DNA from: an uncultured Patescibacteria group bacterium
GTDB lineage: Bacteria > Patescibacteriota > Microgenomatia > UBA1400 > PJMF01
Assembly (NCBI GenBank): GCA_905478415.1
Contig: CAJQIG010000001.1
Location: 309,892 to 373,891, forward strand
Length of the DNA: 64,000 bases
Reading direction: 5' to 3'
The notes under the pieces: generated by a model
The model's input: only the letters and a program-made list of their open reading frames with translations
What the model was told of the DNA's origin: nothing
The model's database searches: none
Shown: in pieces, positions 36,908 through 64,000 of the stretch
Numbering within the stretch: the stretch's first letter is position 1
Layout of the letters: each line of letters begins with the position of its first letter
Made by a program: the position numbers and the translations under genes

Positions 36908-37297
36908 TCAAATCACTTTCACAGCTTTTGCATTACGCATCTTTGCATCTGCATACTCAAAAAGCACACCCTGTTTTGACGTAGAATTATTTCTAACAGC
37001 ATGTGAGAGGTTTGGTGGAATTTCAAAAAGTAGAACGGTATCCCCTGACTGCATAGTAACTTCATGTGTAACATCCTCTGCATCTACCCAAAATAAAGAT
37101 AAATCATCCATTGTCACAAACCACTCAGTCCGAGGGTGCGTATGATTACCTCCATAACTGCCAGGAGCTAAAAGAATAATCTGCTGATCTTTAATAAGGT
37201 TTTTCTCAATTGGAAGATCATCTGTGTTTAATACCCAGACCTTTGGATCTTGTTTTTGGTATGAATAATTAAGTTTGGTTATCTTGGGTTCTAACAT
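36908..37297 (-). CDS. cupin domain protein; start moved to internal Met to avoid tRNA overlap
   Basis: GGNHTHPRTEWFV cupin motif 1 and GDTVLLFEIPPNLSHAV motif 2; the track ORF extends over the tRNA gene. Confidence 0.55.
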   Translation of the reverse strand: MLEPKITKLNYSYQKQDPKVWVLNTDDLPIEKNLIKDQQIILLAPGSYGGNHTHPRTEWFVTMDDLSLFWVDAEDVTHEVTMQSGDTVLLFEIPPNLSHAVRNNSTSKQGVLFEYADAKMRNAKAVKVI

Positions 37298-37347
37298 AGA
37301 GCTATCATAGCAGATCACAGGTATTTGCAGAGAATAAAATCGAGGTG

Positions 37348-37421
37348 TCGGGTTGACTGGACTCGAACCAGCGACCTCACGCACCCCATGCGCGCACTCT
37401 AGCCATCTGAGCTACAACCCG
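37348..37421 (-). tRNA. tRNA-Pro (anticodon GGG)
   Basis: Manual cloverleaf: acceptor CGGGTTG/CAACCCG, D-arm GCTC..GAGT, anticodon stem CGCGC/GCGTG, loop AUGGGGU (T33, GGG, G37), T-arm GCTGG-TTCGAGT-CCAGT, discriminator A; 74 nt, CCA not encoded. Confidence 0.8.
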
Positions 37422-55932: not shown

Positions 55933-56069
55933 AGTGGTCCTCTTGATTGACAACTCTCTCATAATATCCTATAATTAATATATGTGACATAGCTTATGAT
56001 GTATATCAAAAAGACGTGTCACTATTGCTATTTAACTTAATTGATTTTTTTGCCCTTTAGGAGGCTATC

Positions 56070-56873
56070 TTGACTAAAAAAAATGTCCACAAAACAAAAA
56101 GCCAAGGATGGATTAAACGATTCATGGCTTTTTCGGACAAACCAGCAATCCAAGTGATTGCTCCATTTTTATTCGTCTGGATGTTTACCCTCTCGTTTGG
56201 GCAACTCCAGTTTGGCATCGCCATGACCTTGAGCATGGTTCTCCATGAGCTTGGCCATGCCTATGTCTTGAAAGAGAATGGAATCCTCTGGAAAATTCTG
56301 TGGCTGTTCCCCCTCGGGGCAGTAGCCGCACCGCTGAATGAGGCGGAAAACAAAAGATCAGACTTGCTTGCCTGGTGGAAATTAACCTGGTTAATGCTGG
56401 CTGGACCAGCTGTAAATGTTGGTTTGATGTTTGTGGGTGTGCTTCTAACTAGTATTAATCCTGTCTGGAGCGCAGCCTTGATCACAACTAATGGATATCT
56501 GTTAGTGATTAACTTGATTCCAGTTGGGTCTTTAGACGCAGGTCAACATTTCAAACTCATCTTTACGTCTCTCAATGAGCGTGAAGAGAAAGTGCTGTTG
56601 ACTTTCTTCGCCGCTATTATGGTTGTGTTTTTCGGCCTTTTGTCCTGGAGTGGGTATGGATCTATCCTTTTGACTCTGGTCATGAACATTGGCTGGGTGG
56701 CACTAATCCCCATCATTGTGATTGCCGTTTTTTCGGCCTCAATGAAAGATGATGAGACTTTGTCTGAATCCCCTTTAGCCATGACCAACACTCAAGCCGC
56801 CATTGCGACTTTGTCGTATATGGGCTTAGTTCTAGCCATGTTGGTCATGTGGGTTGGACCGCTGGTGCTCTAA
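56070..56873 (+). CDS. M50 family (site-2 protease-like) intramembrane zinc metalloprotease
   Basis: HELGH in TM helix and NLIPVGSLDAG (LDG) motif; AGGAGG RBS. Confidence 0.7.
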   Translation: MTKKNVHKTKSQGWIKRFMAFSDKPAIQVIAPFLFVWMFTLSFGQLQFGIAMTLSMVLHELGHAYVLKENGILWKILWLFPLGAVAAPLNEAENKRSDLLAWWKLTWLMLAGPAVNVGLMFVGVLLTSINPVWSAALITTNGYLLVINLIPVGSLDAGQHFKLIFTSLNEREEKVLLTFFAAIMVVFFGLLSWSGYGSILLTLVMNIGWVALIPIIVIAVFSASMKDDETLSESPLAMTNTQAAIATLSYMGLVLAMLVMWVGPLVL

Positions 56874-56892
56874 CAAAATCAAATAAGTTAGA

Positions 56893-56925
56893 AAGACCCT
56901 TCAAATTGAAGGGTCTTTTTGCTTT
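56893..56925 (+). terminator. rho-independent terminator
   Basis: aagacccttcaa-att-gaagggtctt followed by tttgctttt. Confidence 0.7.
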
Positions 56926-56938
56926 TAAGTCCTATAGT

Positions 56939-56967
56939 ATTGACAATTCGCAATGATGGTGTTATAA
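56939..56967 (+). promoter_or_regulatory. consensus sigma70 promoter TTGACA-N17-TATAAT
   Basis: Read directly; the upstream 20 nt resemble the 55441 promoter. Confidence 0.65.
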
Positions 56968-57329
56968 TGTACGTATTAGTGATATACAACTATTACTAAG
57001 ATACAACCAACCTTACATACTTTTTTTCCTAAATGTTGGTTGCAAACCGAACTTTGATTATTGTTGATAGATGCTTGGCATTCACGAATGCTCTTCACCT
57101 GTCAACATACCGCCCGAAGGCATTGCTGCTTTCACTGGTGGGTGCGACAGAAGACGTTTCTAAGTTTACTTAGAAACTGAACCTTAACAGGTATACAGAA
57201 ATATAAAAATTGAATGAACACTATACGTGTATCGTTTCTTTTTCTCCGTGGTTTTATTTTTAACTCTCTCTTTTGTTGGTTTCCGTGTGGCCCACAGTGG
57301 GCGCGTACTGGTTGTAACGTGCTCGCTGT

Positions 57330-57435
57330 GGGCTGCAGGGCCCTTCAGAAATTTTTAGAACGGAAGGTCATCCGTCAAATGACCCTTGGCTTTCCGCCAA
57401 GTTCTTATTTTTCATCTGGCTCTGCAGCCCGCAGG
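57330..57435 (+). promoter_or_regulatory. GC-rich multi-hairpin structured 5' leader element upstream of lipoprotein gene
   Basis: Outer pairing GGGCUGCAG (57332-57340) with CUGCAGCCC (57422-57430); inner hairpins GGUCAU-ccgucaa-AUGACC and UUGGC-uuucc-GCCAA. Confidence 0.45.
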
Positions 57436-57508
57436 ACCAGGACTTATTGAAAATGTTGAAAAAATGCCCCATCCTTGGGCAATAATTTCCATTGGAGGAA
57501 ATAAAAAA

Positions 57509-58630
57509 ATGAAGCGTACTAGCATTTTGTTCCTATTTTTAATCTTATCAACTATCGCGTTAACAGCATGTGACTGGCGTTTACGGTCACCAATCGTCAA
57601 GGAAACGCCGGCCCCCTATGTTGTAACTCCCGAACCCACCCCAGTGGTGGTGAAAGAATACTGGAGTCCTACTGAAGGGGCCACGTGGAACCATTTAACT
57701 GAAGACGCAGATTACCAAGAATATGAAAATTTGGTAATTCCTGTCTGTGGCCCAGTCGGATACCCAGATGAAGCAGAAGTTAAAGTTATCCGTGGTGGTC
57801 AAGATGGTAAGGATGTAAGCGTGTTTTTCAACTGTAATCTGTTCCGCACACACGTGCTGGGACTGCCTACATTGGCTGAAATTTACGAAAGCACTCCTGA
57901 ACCAATTGACAACAGCATCGAAGCTGAAGCCAACTCCTGCCCCGAAGACGCCGATATGATCGAAACCGCACTGGCCGATGGCTATGTGCACTTCGTGTTT
58001 GATGGCGAATCTGTTTCGTGGGACCCCTGCAAGTGGCACGGGTACACGGAAGACGGGTTGACGCTGGAAAATGCTGATTGGCAAGCAACCGTTGTGTTGC
58101 ATGATGGCGACGAGCAATCTGACCCCATCGTGTGGCGCGGCCCAGCTGAAATTGACGGCAACGTCAGCTTCACCCTCCGCTATATCGGCGAGGGCAGCGG
58201 CTATGCTGCTGACCACTGGGTCAACAATGACTGCCAGCTCCTGATTCAAGAATACGCATTCGGATTGCGCCGAGAGAACTGGGATTATCCCACTTTCGAA
58301 GGCAACGTTACCTGTGATGCTCTTGATGACCTTTTGGCCAACGAAGTTGACGTCAACGACCTCCCCAACGCCTACACAATCGCAGCCGTTTTCGGTGGCG
58401 AGTCCCCCATGTGGACAGTGAAAGATTGGGAAGGCGGCGCGCATTTGTTTGCCGCCGGCGAACATGCTGATGGCAGCATGAACTTCATCAAGCTTGAGGT
58501 CCCCAGCTGGGCCGACAGCTGTGAGATTGATTATTGGAATGGCGAGACAGGCGCTGCTGACAAGCTGATGCCCGGCGACCCCGGCATCTCCTTGAACGAA
58601 GCGTCCCTGCACTGTCACGCGGACCAATAA
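57509..58630 (+). CDS. acidic lipoprotein of unknown function, GC-rich (compositionally foreign)
   Basis: GGAGGA RBS 9 nt upstream of ATG 57509; MKRTSILFLFLILSTIALTAC lipobox; the antisense 310-aa track ORF is treated as a high-GC artefact. Confidence 0.6.
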   Translation: MKRTSILFLFLILSTIALTACDWRLRSPIVKETPAPYVVTPEPTPVVVKEYWSPTEGATWNHLTEDADYQEYENLVIPVCGPVGYPDEAEVKVIRGGQDGKDVSVFFNCNLFRTHVLGLPTLAEIYESTPEPIDNSIEAEANSCPEDADMIETALADGYVHFVFDGESVSWDPCKWHGYTEDGLTLENADWQATVVLHDGDEQSDPIVWRGPAEIDGNVSFTLRYIGEGSGYAADHWVNNDCQLLIQEYAFGLRRENWDYPTFEGNVTCDALDDLLANEVDVNDLPNAYTIAAVFGGESPMWTVKDWEGGAHLFAAGEHADGSMNFIKLEVPSWADSCEIDYWNGETGAADKLMPGDPGISLNEASLHCHADQ

Positions 58631-58652
58631 ATAATTTTTTCTGTATAACCTG

Positions 58653-58683
58653 TTGCCCCGACGCTTTTAAAGTGTCGGGGCAA
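58653..58683 (+). terminator. 10-bp GC-rich stem hairpin downstream of lipoprotein gene
   Basis: ttgccccgac-gcttttaaagt-gtcggggcaa; weak U-tract. Confidence 0.5.
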
Positions 58684-58711
58684 TACCAGAGTTCATAATT
58701 ACTTTGTAATT

Positions 58712-60055
58712 GTGGCCTGTGGTATGCCAAAAAACATAAAAAACATACTGGCAAAATATGACACTACGGAAACGTTGTTAATCATATCTTTATATCCCCA
58801 CAAGGGTGAGACCTACTCATCTGGGACCACTGGGGTGGCTTCTTATACCAAGAATGTAGTTAAAAATATGAACCGCAACACGGTTGTTATTGCTGACTAC
58901 AAAAAACAAAGCAGTCACTATGTCGAAAAAGACACATTAGTACTCAGACACTTCAAACATGGCAAAATGTCTATGTGGACTGAGTTACTCCAAAGTGTAA
59001 CTCAATTTAAGAATGCAAAAAATGTACTTATTCAGTTTGATTTCTCTATGTATGGAAGTATGCTGGTATCAGCAACACTACTTCCATTCTTAGCTGTTCT
59101 TAAGTCACTAGGATATAAGACTCACGTTGTTTCTCATCATGTAGTCATGGATGTTGGAAAACTTTCTGGACACATGGGACTGACGAACTCATTCCGCGAC
59201 TCAATCAAGACTCGTGCATTTAACGTAGCCTTTCACTCGTTCTATAGAGCGCTTGGCTTAGTTAGTAACTCTGTTATTGTTCTTGAAGATATCCTCAAAG
59301 AGAGACTGTCTAAATATATTCCTGCTAAAAAAATAATTGCTATTCCTCATGCTGTCGACACTAATTTAGAAAAAATTTCTAAAGCAGAGGCGCGTAAAAA
59401 ACTTGGAATTGCTGCTTCTGAAAAAGTGGTGCTCTTCTTCGGTTTTGTAAACTGGTTTAAAGGTGCAGATATCTTTGCAAAAAACTTTGCAAAGACTCAG
59501 AAGCTTCTTGGAAAAAAAGCTCGCTTTATTATTGCTGGAGGTGAAAGTATTACCTTATCTTCAAAAGAATACTATAAAGAATTTTATAATGGCGTTGTAA
59601 ATACAACCCAAAATTCTTCTTCTGTAGATATCACTGGATATGTTCCTCAAGAAAAAATTGTTGAATACTTCTCTGCTGCGGATTTAATTGTCTTTCCGTA
59701 CAGAGAGTTTATGTGTGCTTCTGGAGTACTATCATTAGCTTTCTCATATAAAAAACCATTTATTGTTTCTGACAAATTAGAACCAATGTTAACTGCACCT
59801 GATTTCTCAGAAGCTATGAAAGACTTTGGCCTAACTACTAGCGATTTATCGTTCGAACTTTCAAAAGAATCAATGCTTAAACAAACAACAAAAGTCTTAA
59901 GAAATGGTCTAAAACGTAAAATGTCACTCATGGGAGCTCAAATTAGAAAACAACGTAGTTTTCAAAATACGGCTAAGACCTATGAACGAGCTATATTTGC
60001 ACCAAGTTCAAAGCTTCATAAATCGCCTAGAGTCAGGTATGCTTATGGTGCATGA
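58712..60055 (+). CDS. glycosyltransferase family 1 (GT-B; GT4-like)
   Basis: C-terminal pattern GGE...FPYREFMCASG resembling the EX7E region. Confidence 0.55.
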   Translation: MACGMPKNIKNILAKYDTTETLLIISLYPHKGETYSSGTTGVASYTKNVVKNMNRNTVVIADYKKQSSHYVEKDTLVLRHFKHGKMSMWTELLQSVTQFKNAKNVLIQFDFSMYGSMLVSATLLPFLAVLKSLGYKTHVVSHHVVMDVGKLSGHMGLTNSFRDSIKTRAFNVAFHSFYRALGLVSNSVIVLEDILKERLSKYIPAKKIIAIPHAVDTNLEKISKAEARKKLGIAASEKVVLFFGFVNWFKGADIFAKNFAKTQKLLGKKARFIIAGGESITLSSKEYYKEFYNGVVNTTQNSSSVDITGYVPQEKIVEYFSAADLIVFPYREFMCASGVLSLAFSYKKPFIVSDKLEPMLTAPDFSEAMKDFGLTTSDLSFELSKESMLKQTTKVLRNGLKRKMSLMGAQIRKQRSFQNTAKTYERAIFAPSSKLHKSPRVRYAYGA

Positions 60056-61773
60056 AAAAAATAGCACCCTGGTTACTTTTAGCTGCTCTTAGCATCTTTC
60101 TTTGTTACTATTTTTTATTTAGAGCTCAAGTACAGCTTGGAGGTGATATCGTAGAGTATTACGGTATTACTGAATCAGTAAAAAATCACTTTAGTTTTGA
60201 ACTTACAGTAGAAGATAGAACTAATCTGGAACAAGTACTGCATAAAGCTTACTTTGAAGATCCTGGCTATTACATATCAGGCACTGATCAAAAACGCTAT
60301 CCTGTTCACTTTATCTTTTACTCACTGCTTGCACTACCATTCCGGCTACTTCTTGAGGCACTTAATCTCAATCCACTCCGATCACTTTGGTTACTAAATA
60401 TTTTTTCATACCTTACTATGATTGGGATTATCTGGGCTAAATATATTCATAAGAGTGGCCATCGTATCGCCTTTTTACTTCTTACATTTATATCTCCGCT
60501 TATGTCCTTTTTTATATGGCCTGGACCAGATCTCTTTGTCATTACGTTACTCACTGTCTCCTTGTTTGCCTTTGCTAAAAAAGAATATCTTTTTGCAATA
60601 CTTTTGAGCACAGTTGCCTCATGGCACAGTCAACCAGTACTGATTGTGACATTCTTCTTTCTCCTCTCCTATGTTGTCATTGGCCATACTCAACAAAAAA
60701 AGTTTGCAATTACTACTAAGATCTTAGCTACTGCTTTTGGTGTTGGCTTACTATCACTAATTCCCTACCTTTATAACTACCTTGCATTTGGTGTTTTAAC
60801 ACCGTGGACACTTCTTCAAGATGGATGGACTACAGTACGTGGTTTCGGATTACACAACGCTTCGGTACAAAAATTTTACGAACAATTTTTTGACCTTAAT
60901 ATTGGTATTTTTTGGTATTCTCCAATACTTTTTATAGCTTCACTGTTTTATTTTATGAGGAATCATACAAAAAACACACTGCTCAATTACTTTTATCTAG
61001 CTATTTTTTGTCTCACACTACTCTTTTATCAAACAAATCCTGGCTGGCATTATGGAACATCTGGTTTCGGTCCTGGTCGGCATTCAATTATTGTTTTAGC
61101 GTTACTTTTTTTCATTACCACTCAACTTATAGCTTCACAAACTAAAAAATTTACGATTGGATTTATTGCGTTTCTGCTAGTGATTCAAGGAAGTATTTTG
61201 TCTAAAAATAATTTTCTCGAGCCAAAACTAGAGAATACTCTCCATAATAGTTTTTTTGCTTCTTTCATTCTCGATTCTCTGCCAGAACTCTATAACCCTA
61301 CCCCTGAGATTTTTGTTGATAGAACAAACCATACAGATAATACTCAACTAGAGTCAGCCTATTATATGAAAGATGGAATCTGCAAAAAAGCCTTTGTACT
61401 GTACTCAGACCTCCCCTTCTTAAAAGAACACTGTCCTAATAATGCAAAACTCTCTGCCACACTCATGTTCGAAGACCCATTTAAAAGAAGCGCTAGCTAT
61501 CCAAGAACTATCATTTTAGACGAAGCCACTTTCTGGCCTGAACCAAGAGCTTGTGACAATAACTTTAAGCATCAATATTTTGTTTGTCCAAAAACAACAG
61601 ATGATTTTATGTCCGAGACGGGAATATCAGACGAACTTAGAATCACCACACTTGCTGAGTTTCCATCTCCTGGCATATGGAAACTCAGCAAAGGAGCCCC
61701 AATTAAAGTTACTGTTCCTCCCGGATACATTTTAGACTACACTGCAACAGATGGTATCTATGTCAACTTTTAA
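60052..61773 (+). CDS. polytopic membrane protein, GT-C-like (possible arabinofuranosyl/mannosyl-transferase)
   Basis: More than 10 TM; 4-nt overlap with preceding gene. Confidence 0.4.
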   Translation: MKKIAPWLLLAALSIFLCYYFLFRAQVQLGGDIVEYYGITESVKNHFSFELTVEDRTNLEQVLHKAYFEDPGYYISGTDQKRYPVHFIFYSLLALPFRLLLEALNLNPLRSLWLLNIFSYLTMIGIIWAKYIHKSGHRIAFLLLTFISPLMSFFIWPGPDLFVITLLTVSLFAFAKKEYLFAILLSTVASWHSQPVLIVTFFFLLSYVVIGHTQQKKFAITTKILATAFGVGLLSLIPYLYNYLAFGVLTPWTLLQDGWTTVRGFGLHNASVQKFYEQFFDLNIGIFWYSPILFIASLFYFMRNHTKNTLLNYFYLAIFCLTLLFYQTNPGWHYGTSGFGPGRHSIIVLALLFFITTQLIASQTKKFTIGFIAFLLVIQGSILSKNNFLEPKLENTLHNSFFASFILDSLPELYNPTPEIFVDRTNHTDNTQLESAYYMKDGICKKAFVLYSDLPFLKEHCPNNAKLSATLMFEDPFKRSASYPRTIILDEATFWPEPRACDNNFKHQYFVCPKTTDDFMSETGISDELRITTLAEFPSPGIWKLSKGAPIKVTVPPGYILDYTATDGIYVNF

Positions 61774-64000
61774 AAAAATTGTTACCCATATTCACTTCGC
61801 TCCAGTCTCATTACTTGTCAGTATTTTAGTAATTTTCATTATTTCTCAATTTCCAAGTACTACAAACTTGATTGGATGGGATGCAGTAAGTCCAGAACTC
61901 AACTACTCTGCAAACTTTAGTCGGGCGCTTAATTCTAGCTGGCAAGAAAACTATGGATTAGGAGCTTTAATAGGGCACGGGGTAGGAACAACCTTTATAC
62001 ATACTGGGGTAGTATACCTAATTGACCTGTTTGCACCTAGCCATGCAGTAAGAGCAATTTTTCATTTTTTATCTTTCAGTGTTGGAGCAGTAGGAATGTA
62101 TTTTCTTTCCTACCACATTCTTTCTTCTTTAAAAAATGATGTATCTAAACAACTACTTACATTTATTTCATTACTAGCAGCACTCTTTTATACATTCAAC
62201 TTAGGAACAACACAGCTTTTTTATCTACCATTAGAAGCGTTTAGTGTCCATTTTGCTGGACTTCCATGGGCACTTTTATTATTACTGAGATACATACATA
62301 GTCCAAGTAAAAAGAACTTATTCATACTATTTATTGTAAATATTTTCTTTTCGATGCAAGGCTTCATCCCATCACTTTTTGTCGCATATCTCTTTTCAAT
62401 TGGAGTGTATACCACAACTTTTTTTCTGCTCAATAAAAACAAAAAAAAGAATGGCACACATATCTTATTTGCTTTATTTATCATCTTATTAGCGAATAGC
62501 TATTGGCTAACATCATTCACTTTTTATACTTTGTTTAGAAACCAAAATTTTCTCGAAGCATATAATAACTTGAGTTCAACTGAACAATTTATACAGCAAA
62601 GCATGAAGTATGGTGATGTACTAAACGTTGGATTGTTAAAAAGTTTTTATCTTGATACTTCAGTAGCTGACACTCAAGTTTTTCAAAGCTGGAACCAATT
62701 CTTTCAAAATTCTGCTATTCTCTTTTTTTACTTCCTTTTTTTCTTAGTTAGTGTATTAGGACTCATTGTTTCTACTTTTAAACGGTATAGAAAAATAATG
62801 CTTCCACTTTCAAGTGTCTATCTTTTTTTCTTTTTAGGACTGACTACAGCAACCCCCCCTTTTTCTTTTGCTTCTAAACTTTTACAACTACTCCCCCTCT
62901 ATAAACAAGCTTTTAGAACTACATTCACTAAGCTTGGTACTGGTATGGCCCTTAGTTACAGCATATTTTTAGGTCTTGGCTTACTGTTTCTTTTTTCTAA
63001 AAAGAGCAAATTCTCTCATGCCTTTTTATGGTTTCTTTTAGCTATAAGTACCACAGTACTCGTTCTTCCTCATTTTATTTTTCCTGCCTTCTACGAGAAT
63101 GAATCAATACGTATTCCACAGGCATACAGAGATGTCACTAACGAATTTAATCAAAAGGGATATGCTCACATCGCGATGCTCCCCGCAGATTGTTCAGAAG
63201 GTTGGTATAACTACAACTGGAACTATGTTGGTTCTGGATTTCTTTGGTATGGTGTTAAACAACCAATTATTGAACGTTTTTCTGATGTGTGGAGTGCTAA
63301 CAATGAACAATACTTTTGGGAACTCTCGTCTGCACTACACGCAAATAACACAGAGCAACTTTCAAATATTTTTATGAAGTATGACATAAAATGGTTACTC
63401 ATTGATGAAAACCTTGAACACTGCAGTAATTTTAATGGTTTTTCTCAACAAAAGCTTCTCATAGATCGCTTAACAAGCTCAAATCAATTCCAACTTATTT
63501 TTGAAACAGATAAAGGAGTAGAAAAACCGATAAGAATCCTTGAAAATACTCAGCATAGTAATTATAATTTTATTTCAAGTTCATCTGTTACAAAAGTTTC
63601 TACTACTCGCACCTGGATGTTAGAGGATACTCTCTTTGCATCAAAAAAATCTTATGTTTCTAACCCAACAGAAATACTTAGCGATGAATATTTTGTCTTC
63701 CCAAGTATTTTTTCTCAAAGAGGAAATGCAGTATCTTCTTCCCAAATAGAAAATACTAACGCTACTCTCACTTTTATTTCTCCAGAAAAAACAAATACAG
63801 ATAGACAAATTAACTTAGTGGTTTCATATGCTGAGGACCCTATTCCATTCTCAACTACTATTGAACAGTTGAATGATCTTTATTCATTACAAATGAATCT
63901 CGACTTTCCGCTAGTTGTTATTGGAAGTCAAGAATTTGACGTCGATACAACAATTAATCTGGGGGAACTTTCCATTGATGAAACAACAGATATTGCACTA
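61760..64000 (+). CDS. large polytopic membrane protein, 3'-partial (no stop before window end); overlaps preceding gene by 14 nt
   Basis: Manual reading from ATG 61760 (MSTFKKIVTHIHF...) found no in-frame stop to 64000; absent from the ORF track presumably because it has no stop. Confidence 0.55.
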   Translation, partial: MSTFKKIVTHIHFAPVSLLVSILVIFIISQFPSTTNLIGWDAVSPELNYSANFSRALNSSWQENYGLGALIGHGVGTTFIHTGVVYLIDLFAPSHAVRAIFHFLSFSVGAVGMYFLSYHILSSLKNDVSKQLLTFISLLAALFYTFNLGTTQLFYLPLEAFSVHFAGLPWALLLLLRYIHSPSKKNLFILFIVNIFFSMQGFIPSLFVAYLFSIGVYTTTFFLLNKNKKKNGTHILFALFIILLANSYWLTSFTFYTLFRNQNFLEAYNNLSSTEQFIQQSMKYGDVLNVGLLKSFYLDTSVADTQVFQSWNQFFQNSAILFFYFLFFLVSVLGLIVSTFKRYRKIMLPLSSVYLFFFLGLTTATPPFSFASKLLQLLPLYKQAFRTTFTKLGTGMALSYSIFLGLGLLFLFSKKSKFSHAFLWFLLAISTTVLVLPHFIFPAFYENESIRIPQAYRDVTNEFNQKGYAHIAMLPADCSEGWYNYNWNYVGSGFLWYGVKQPIIERFSDVWSANNEQYFWELSSALHANNTEQLSNIFMKYDIKWLLIDENLEHCSNFNGFSQQKLLIDRLTSSNQFQLIFETDKGVEKPIRILENTQHSNYNFISSSSVTKVSTTRTWMLEDTLFASKKSYVSNPTEILSDEYFVFPSIFSQRGNAVSSSQIENTNATLTFISPEKTNTDRQINLVVSYAEDPIPFSTTIEQLNDLYSLQMNLDFPLVVIGSQEFDVDTTINLGELSIDETTDIAL

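Follow-up and report, generated by a model that had tools for sequence, protein, structure and literature searches.

What is the function of a long, structured and apparently untranslated leader RNA that precedes a lipoprotein gene in an uncultured member of the Patescibacteria? The leader in question lies in a stretch of 64,000 nucleotides (nt) of contig CAJQIG010000001.1 (positions 309,892 to 373,891), which we call the window. Its transcription start site (TSS) is predicted at about position 56975 of the window and its length at about 534 nt, none of it translated. A sequence-only reading of this region had proposed either a cis-regulatory RNA, namely a riboswitch, thermometer or attenuator, or an independent small RNA. 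The more general part of that proposal stands, in that we observe a long, structured, cis-acting leader that runs from a consensus promoter and is conserved with compensatory changes. However, none of the specific classes named there is supported. Because the conserved core of the leader's family is a boxA, the leader is most likely an antitermination leader rather than a riboswitch. Specifically, we propose, at about even confidence, that it is a NusB/S10 antitermination leader like those of rRNA (rrn) operons, and that it would protect an extended untranslated 5' region as well as the long envelope-glycan operon behind it.

A leader family centred on boxA

Leaders of homologous lipoprotein operons in approximately 13 lineages of Patescibacteria have a common architecture. 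A strong promoter is followed by a structured 5' part that varies, then by a hairpin that directly adjoins an unpaired boxA, and finally by a long helix rich in G and U. (Loci are given L-numbers where they need to be told apart; L002 is the closest relative of the window's locus.) The published boxA consensus is GYTCTTTAANA (PMC5725501). An exact match to this consensus is present in the leaders of seven lineages (L003, L004, L005, L008, L014, L015 and L017) and nowhere else on either strand of the 174 kb of retrieved DNA. The sites of L018, L019 and L021 have one mismatch, and those of L002 and L010 have two. A ten-site family alignment (A8) yielded a profile with the consensus aGCUCUUUAACAA. 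As a positive control, the top match of this profile upstream of 16S rRNA in E. coli was the genuine rrn boxA (E = 0.001), and the family's boxA consensus, GCUCUUUAACAA (GCUCUUUAACA as RNA), is identical to this E. coli element. The profile also disclosed a further member at position 935 of L019, whose leader extends ~520 nt to the first open reading frame (ORF). In the window and most relatives, boxA lies 170-530 nt from the start codon; in L018, a complete Roizmanbacteria chromosome (CP066689.1), it is only ~25 nt from the ribosome-binding site (RBS). An alignment of all leaders made with MAFFT is usable only around boxA.

The structural context of boxA is also shared. In 12 of 13 lineages, no more than 0-4 nt separate the end of a helix from boxA; the 13th also has this helix, interrupted by an internal loop. 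The corresponding proportion for random positions in the same loci is 34%. A double-stranded RNA-binding surface is contiguous with the boxA site on NusB-NusE (PMC3177189), and a helix that abuts boxA fits both this surface and the position of boxB in rrn leaders. Downstream, the longest uninterrupted helix within 220 nt past boxA has a median length of 14.5 base pairs (bp), versus 9 bp in controls (Mann-Whitney p = 1.4e-7). The 5' strands of these downstream helices are G/U-rich (GUGUGGCCC in the window; also GGAUGGGGUCC and GUUGUGGGCA). They recall boxC (UCUGUGUGGG), which is part of the 5' strand of the helix of 25-40 bp formed by the rrn leader and trailer (PMC10250234).

Some further similarities occur around boxA. 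The sequence immediately 3' of it is alike in L010 (positions 943-972, ...AUAUCAGACUAAU) and in the E. coli rrn leader (L036, positions 404-432, ...UUAUCAGACAAUC), while the remaining family members carry AUAC(U)CAG(A/G) there. The similarity between L010 and E. coli may reflect a second conserved contact, or it may have arisen by chance. Additionally, a CAGAAG-like motif, ...CAGAAG(A/C)C, which belongs to an unpaired linker at 57142-57155 of the window, recurs 5' of the boxB-like hairpin or hairpins in groups B and D, with copies at approximately 20 in L003, 3605 in L008 and 3685 in L005. Scans of viral contigs with patterns consisting of boxA plus its flanks found only chance matches inside coding DNA.

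The window's own boxA-like element is degenerate, and can be recognized only from where it lies and from comparison with L002. On the sense strand, 211 nt 3' of the promoter's -10 element and one nt past a boxB-like hairpin, we observe GAACCTTAACA (57179-57189) followed by GGTATACAG; the consensus fold with L002 leaves the element unpaired. Identity between the window and L002 reaches 81% in its block, compared to 47% over the whole leader. The tail GGYATACAG (GGTATACAG) is common to the window, L017, L019 and L021. The composite motif occurred anywhere in only 6 of 300 simulated windows, and its probability for this particular leader is ~1e-4. L002, L010, L018 and L019 likewise have an A at the third base of the consensus, suggesting that this variant is specific to a lineage. 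The rrn boxA of Aquifex naturally has a C at base 5 of the 11-nt consensus (position 6 of the 12-mer GGCUCCUUGGCA), and the change C6U was judged harmless. Given the position and flanking hairpins, the shared tail and the rarity of the composite motif, we regard the window's site as homologous to boxA. We conclude that it is probably a diverged boxA still under constraint. However, its activity in this genome is uncertain, and less certain than in the relatives because the sequence has drifted here.

Transcription unit and fold of the leader

The features of the leader and its surroundings are collected in Table 1. The gene upstream of the leader encodes an M50 peptidase, and its stop codon (at 56873) is 5' of the leader's promoter. 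Because a terminator hairpin closes this upstream gene, the leader forms its own transcription unit; an analogous hairpin likewise precedes the promoter of L002. The perfect TTGACA-N17-TATAAT promoter that had been recognized in the sequence is confirmed, although its coordinates had been given one base too low. Three such perfect sites occur in the 64-kb window, versus none in 100 shuffles. Within the family, the promoter is perfect in L002 and L010 and has one mismatch in L008, and consensus or near-consensus promoters are located 180-280 nt 5' of boxA in the window, L002, L008 and L010. A scan of the + strand from 56968 to the lipoprotein gene revealed no further promoter.

Table 1. Positions of the leader's elements and adjoining features in the window, with the boxA sites of related loci
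Feature	Positions	Strand	Description
Intrinsic terminator of the upstream M50-peptidase gene	56889-56921	+	15-bp stem, then a T-run
Sigma-70-type promoter	56940-56968	+	-35 TTGACA at 56940-45; 17-nt spacer; TG of an extended -10; -10 TATAAT at 56963-68
Hairpin H2	57004-57042	+	CAACCAAC/GUUGGUUG, 8 bp; stems invariant and loop variable between window and L002
Hairpin H3	57062-57107	+	UGUUGAUAG.../...CUGUCAACA; compensatory changes in inner stem (pairs 113/124 and 114/123)
Hairpin H4	57110-57141	+	4 compensatory pairs between window and L002
Unpaired linker	57142-57155	+	Within GGGUGCGACAGAAGAC; best-conserved block relative to L002 (93%)
boxB-like hairpin	57156-57177	+	GUUUCUAAG-UUUA-CUUAGAAAC, 9 bp; 3 compensatory pairs relative to L002
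Degenerate boxA-like element	57179-57198	+	GAACCUUAACA, 8/11 to GYTCTTTAANA, then directly GGUAUACAG
Spacer	57225-57283	+	Pyrimidine-rich, little conserved, mostly unstructured
Long hairpin	57286-57337	+	20-21 uninterrupted bp, 5 of them G-U pairs; 5' strand GUGUGGCCC is G/U-rich and boxC-like
5' arm of alternative helix	57326-57342	+	17-bp helix with 57418-57434; overlaps 3' arm of long hairpin
Terminator-like hairpin	57385-57412	+	CUUGGC-UUUCC-GCCAAG, then a U-rich tail; not conserved, no U-tract in L002
3' hairpin	57416-57440	+	CUGG-CU-CUGC-AGCCC-GCAG-GA-CCAG; includes 57418-57434, the 3' arm of the alternative helix
RBS and start codon	57494-57499 (GGAGGA); 57509-57511 (ATG)	+	Lipoprotein gene 57509-58630; signal peptide with lipobox LTAC
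Operon downstream of leader	57509-63997	+	Lipoprotein, GT1, membrane protein, large protein
boxA sites in relatives (exact consensus)			GTTCTTTAACAAACGAGATACTCAGAA in L003, L004 and L008; GTTCTTTAACAAACGG in L014; GCTCTTTAACA in L015 and L017; GCTCTTTAAAA in L005
boxA sites in relatives (with mismatches)			GCTCTTTGACA in L021; GCACTTTAACA in L018 and L019; GCACTTTGAAA in L010

The leader does contain ORFs of 30-78 amino acids (aa). However, its alignment with L002 is interrupted by indels (1, 4, 29 and 45 nt long, among others of comparable length), and because many of these are not multiples of three and break the reading frames, the ORFs are not conserved. The earlier view that no plausible ORF precedes the ATG at 57509 is therefore borne out in the sense that no conserved ORF does. 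The lipoprotein of L002, which is 71% identical, begins at the same point as this ATG. An N-terminal extension of the lipoprotein to a TTG at 57386 was considered and rejected as spurious, as the RBS, the lipobox and the start in L002 all indicate that the ATG is the true start. Two observations relate to the promoters. Tandem direct repeats of 17 nt (TATTAGTGATATACAAC / TATTACTAAGATACAAC) at 56974-57007, right at the predicted TSS, are weakly conserved in L002 and could be an operator for a DNA-binding protein. The second perfect TTGACA-17-TATAAT promoter of the window, at 55947-55975, is ~95 nt 5' of the M50-peptidase gene (56070-56873); its leader is short and AT-rich, and we saw no boxA-like element in it.

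The proposal that the leader is highly structured is well supported: positions 56975-57520 fold at -178.8 kcal/mol, compared to -129.9 +/- 5.6 for shuffled sequences (z = -8.70). In the region 57270-57450, the + strand folds at -82.2 kcal/mol (z = -6.77) and the - strand at -66.7 (z = -4.76), the former being more stable because its helices contain G-U pairs that work on the + strand only. The 5'-most hairpin begins ~2 nt past the predicted TSS, and is poorly conserved in L002 (52% identity). The hairpin that the sequence-only reading had placed at 57004-57042 (CAACCAAC/GTTGGTTG) was recovered. By contrast, the long hairpin at 57286-57337 was absent from that reading, yet it is the most prominent element of the leader and is favoured by the minimum-energy fold. 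Its apical part and loop (UACUGGUUGUAA) are conserved, and comparison with L002 reveals four compensatory pairs and four one-sided changes. A CUGG...CCAG hairpin had been described as lying just before the RBS; this hairpin exists, but it lies ~55 nt upstream of the RBS. The Shine-Dalgarno sequence itself is touched only by a weak 5-bp pairing (UUUCC/GGAAA), which is not conserved in L002.

Covariation was assessed with two sequences, the window and L002, i.e., one close relative, and the results should be read with this scope in mind. Although overall column identity is low, the promoter is perfect in both sequences, and identity rises to 81% for 57178-57204 and to 72-76% for H2, H3 and the long hairpin. 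The RNAalifold consensus of the two leaders contains 81 pairs, of which 16 are maintained by two-sided changes, distributed over H3, H4, the hairpin at 57156-57177, the long hairpin and the 3' hairpin. As judged from this pair of sequences, selection on the leader's hairpins as RNA appears to be real. A covariance model (R1) built from the 5' domain (56975-57160) of the window and L002 found no homologue in other lineages, so this domain is lineage-specific.

Part of the 3' half of the leader can adopt two folds. The GC-rich element that had been read as resembling a three-way junction has an outer stem with arms GGGCTGCAG (57330-57338) and CTGCAGCCC (57422-57430), i.e., the pairing GGGCUGCAG/CUGCAGCCC, and the full complementarity amounts to 17 bp. 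This outer stem is genuine. However, the junction represents one of two folds that compete with each other, and L002, where the stem encloses a single hairpin, does not retain it as a junction. The 17-bp helix and the long hairpin are mutually exclusive, since the 3' arm of the hairpin overlaps the 5' arm of the helix. In the window, the two folds are nearly isoenergetic (-76.7 kcal/mol for the alternative and -81.1 for the long hairpin), whereas the alternative is 15 kcal/mol worse than the long hairpin in L002. A 9-bp core of the alternative helix can still pair in L002 by virtue of one compensatory change, according to an alignment read by eye. A switch between 57286-57337 and the pairing of 57326-57342 with 57418-57434 is possible. 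Separately, positions 57002-57009 in the 5' arm of H2 (UACAACCA) are perfectly complementary over 8 nt to positions 57309-57316 (UGGUUGUA), which belong to the long hairpin's conserved apical loop. Seven of these eight bases are invariant in L002, with no covariation, and there may be a long-range or kissing contact.

Proposed antitermination and its alternatives

The mechanism that we propose is based on the established antitermination of rrn operons and phage lambda. In it, we infer the binding of Nus factors, the antitermination and the role of the hairpins from the observed promoter, structure, family, boxA motif and shared architecture. NusB-S10 would bind boxA as it leaves RNA polymerase. 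NusA, NusG and possibly a SuhB-like protein would then join, and the polymerase would become resistant to termination. The modified polymerase could cross the ~330 nt of untranslated, structured RNA that remain, as well as the long operon. Otherwise, Rho would be expected to act on the hundreds of untranslated nucleotides, leading to polarity along the operon. The long perfect hairpin past boxA would replace the helix formed by the leader and trailer of rRNA, and might also be a site of RNase III processing or of stabilisation.

The closest known parallel is the E. coli rrn leader, whose boxB-boxA-boxC and leader-trailer helix function with NusA, NusB, NusE, NusG, SuhB and S4 in the complex rrnTAC. 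Like the new family, this leader combines a strong promoter and an untranslated transcript with a hairpin directly 5' of a single-stranded boxA and the G/U-rich 5' strand of a long helix downstream. In contrast to it, the family precedes protein-coding genes, the long helix is capped by a short loop rather than enclosing 16S rRNA and is shorter (a hairpin of 20-21 bp in the window, versus a pairing of 25-40 bp in rrn), ~200 nt of lineage-specific structured RNA lie 5' of boxB, and boxA is degenerate in the window. Sites of the suhB type, reported in 2017, also place a GYTCTTTAANA boxA in the 5' untranslated region (UTR) of a protein-coding gene and extend Nus regulation beyond rRNA (PMC5725501). 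However, these sites are at most 50 nt from the start codon and repress, whereas the boxA elements described here are mostly 170-530 nt upstream, in an rrn-like context and in Patescibacteria. According to the account in PMC12691694 of the work of Stringer et al. 2020, boxA elements upstream of CRISPR arrays follow the same logic, by which a long untranslated transcript is shielded from Rho by the antitermination complex of the rrn type, although there the protected RNA is a repeat-spacer array and not a structured mRNA leader with a coding operon. Finally, operons for polysaccharides or the envelope often have dedicated antitermination systems, e.g., RfaH with ops/JUMPstart, UpxY, LoaP with its leader hairpin, and the EAR RNA. 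As in our family, a long leader precedes a long surface-glycan operon in these systems, where premature termination probably has to be suppressed. Unlike them, our locus has no adjacent NusG paralogue, no ops DNA element and no match to the EAR family of Rfam; its signal is a boxA, i.e., that of NusB/S10.

Antitermination by Nus factors at boxA is usually seen as a mechanism of rRNA, phages and CRISPR arrays, and was worked out in Proteobacteria. Its use for an envelope operon would be new. If our proposal is correct, the Nus regulon reaches an uncultivated, genome-reduced phylum, in which it would provide a testable handle on the control of transcription elongation. A leader-RNA family absent from Rfam would be defined, the lipoprotein/glycosyltransferase operon would be marked as expressed at a priority similar to that of rRNA, and a long leader that looks like a riboswitch would be explicable by a short, known protein-binding motif.

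It is important to consider several points that weigh against antitermination. The window's boxA matches only 8 of the 11 consensus positions, and a change of CU to AA affects two of the eight bases contacted by NusB. In the minimum-energy fold of the window alone, four boxA bases pair weakly. A leave-out profile did not recover the window's site at E <= 10 and recovered that of L002 (GCACCTTAACA) only at E = 1.4, and the 11-mer taken alone is not enriched within the window. Between boxA and the long helix lie 36-97 nt, versus 18-19 nt in Enterobacteria. The C/G ratio of the leader's spacer indicated no clear rut-like, C-rich tract. Lastly, the boxA in the 5' UTR of E. coli suhB represses and does not activate (PMC5725501).

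This last point raises the possibility that boxA instead lowers translation or promotes Rho-dependent termination, as the mRNA 5'-UTR boxA that represses suhB does (PMC5725501), and thereby ties the operon negatively to the level of free Nus factors. Such repression is possible in L018, where boxA is near the RBS. However, in the window (~330 nt from the start codon) and in most relatives, boxA is too distant to occlude the RBS sterically, and the boxB-like hairpin and long helix resemble rrn leaders, not suhB; we therefore consider repression improbable as a general explanation. The degenerate state of the window's boxA would be expected if the element is vestigial here and the leader's main role is in the stability or processing of the mRNA for an abundantly expressed surface lipoprotein. 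High expression is implied by the perfect consensus promoter, the position of the 5'-terminal hairpin near the TSS is suggestive, the uninterrupted long helix is sufficient for RNase III, and RNase Y is encoded within the window. Yet that terminal hairpin is little conserved even in L002, and stabilisation leaves unexplained that the element best conserved across the family is an exact boxA abutted by a hairpin. We regard this idea, which is compatible with the explanation we prefer, as plausible but less likely.

The competing helices could alternatively mean that the leader is a sensor, i.e., a riboswitch, attenuator or thermometer, in which the hairpin at 57286-57337 (1:2), the pairing of 57326-57342 with 57418-57434 (2:3) and the hairpin at 57416-57440 (3:4) switch in response to a ligand, a protein or temperature. 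The near equality of the two folds in the window is consistent with such a switch, as are a C-to-U change in the shared strand for which L002 has compensating changes in both partners, and the conservation of the apical loop together with its complementarity to 57002-57009. However, the covariation comes from only two sequences, the alternative fold is much less stable in L002, and neither fold governs an evident terminator or the Shine-Dalgarno sequence. As to the individual classes, a scan of the leader against Rfam 15 matched no riboswitch family even at E <= 10 and the 5' domain is confined to the window and its closest relative; the Shine-Dalgarno sequence is barely sequestered, contrary to what a thermometer would require; and an attenuator is disfavoured by the lack of a conserved leader peptide and by the failure of the only terminator-like hairpin, at 57385-57412, to be conserved in L002. 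We therefore think it doubtful that the leader is any of these sensors. In the Rfam analysis, neither the leader nor 15 related loci matched any family at the gathering score, and searching 56850-57560 at E <= 10 gave only chance-level matches. Among the candidates rejected were ohsC and Phe_leader, which were terminator look-alikes matching the terminator of the upstream gene.

The same terminator-like hairpin, with its U-rich tail, and the strong fold of the region might suggest an independent small RNA of ~435 nt that ends at 57385-57412, with the lipoprotein gene transcribed by read-through only. This is very unlikely because the site is not conserved: the hairpin of L002 has no U-tract. 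Furthermore, the promoter scan of the + strand between 56968 and the gene found none, and the element is always directly upstream of the lipoprotein operon and in the same orientation. Scans with ARAGORN and for tandem and window-wide repeats detected no tRNA or tmRNA in the leader and no array, and showed the leader to be single-copy within the window. That the leader is a mobile element was also considered and rejected, as a BLAST search of the leader against phage and plasmid collections yielded no match.

Antitermination by NusB/S10 thus remains our preferred explanation. A more elaborate version of it is conceivable, although we see it as a long shot: Patescibacteria may have copied the entire logic of the rRNA leader (boxB-boxA-boxC, with a collapsed leader-trailer helix) onto the lipoprotein/glycan operon, and the competing helices and the conserved complementarity of loop and 5' arm may add a switch in the window's lineage, giving an undescribed composite RNA of ~400-550 nt. 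In that event, envelope synthesis would be tied to the Nus machinery of ribosome synthesis and to growth-rate control.

The operon and its surroundings

The operon begins with the lipoprotein (373 aa). Next come a GT1 glycosyltransferase (58712-60055) and a membrane protein of 573 aa (60052-61773), and then a large protein whose start is at ~61754 and which continues past the end of the window. The same gene order after the lipoprotein (GT1, a membrane protein of ~575 aa and a protein of ~1100 aa) is found in L003, L004, L005, L008 and L016. Since the window shares this order with most loci, we take the leader to serve an envelope-glycan operon. In L018 (2392-2630), L021 (783-1406) and L019 (1469-1975), an extra ORF for a small membrane protein separates the boxA leader from the lipoprotein homologue, so the leader belongs to the operon and not strictly to the lipoprotein gene.

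The lipoprotein itself is rare, with 8 homologues among 5.8 billion proteins. A scan of metagenomes added 4 loci and a scan of genomes 5, while a profile search for further homologues added none. The genome matches, to a metagenome-assembled genome of the Patescibacteria group and to Roizmanbacteria, Gottesmanbacteria and Giovannonibacteria, place the lipoprotein family in the Patescibacteria. The predicted structure of the protein is poor (pLDDT 55), and a Foldseek search with it against the PDB gave no meaningful match. The region of the lipoprotein gene (57550-58650) has a GC content of 0.51-0.62, compared to 0.30-0.45 for its neighbours, which gives rise to a spurious antisense ORF of 310 aa (57695-58627); the high GC content may reflect a foreign origin or a constraint on composition. 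Over 5.3 kb, a contig from the same organism in ENA (ERZ1764469; L001) differs from the window by no more than 3 substitutions (ACCAAG to AAAAAA). The substitutions (57715-57719 in the window, 3985-3989 in L001) put a stop codon inside the lipoprotein gene and represent either a strain variant or an assembly error.

Elsewhere in the window, positions 585-1352 contain a SuhB-like gene of the inositol monophosphatase family (Pfam E = 2e-57), and the third perfect consensus promoter, at 1383-1411, is just 3' of it. SuhB of E. coli is a subunit of the rrn antitermination complex. The only Rfam match in the window is a tRNA at 37348-37421 on the - strand. It overlaps the start region of a mechanically called ORF (36908-37384) that encodes a cupin, and the true start of this ORF is probably further downstream.

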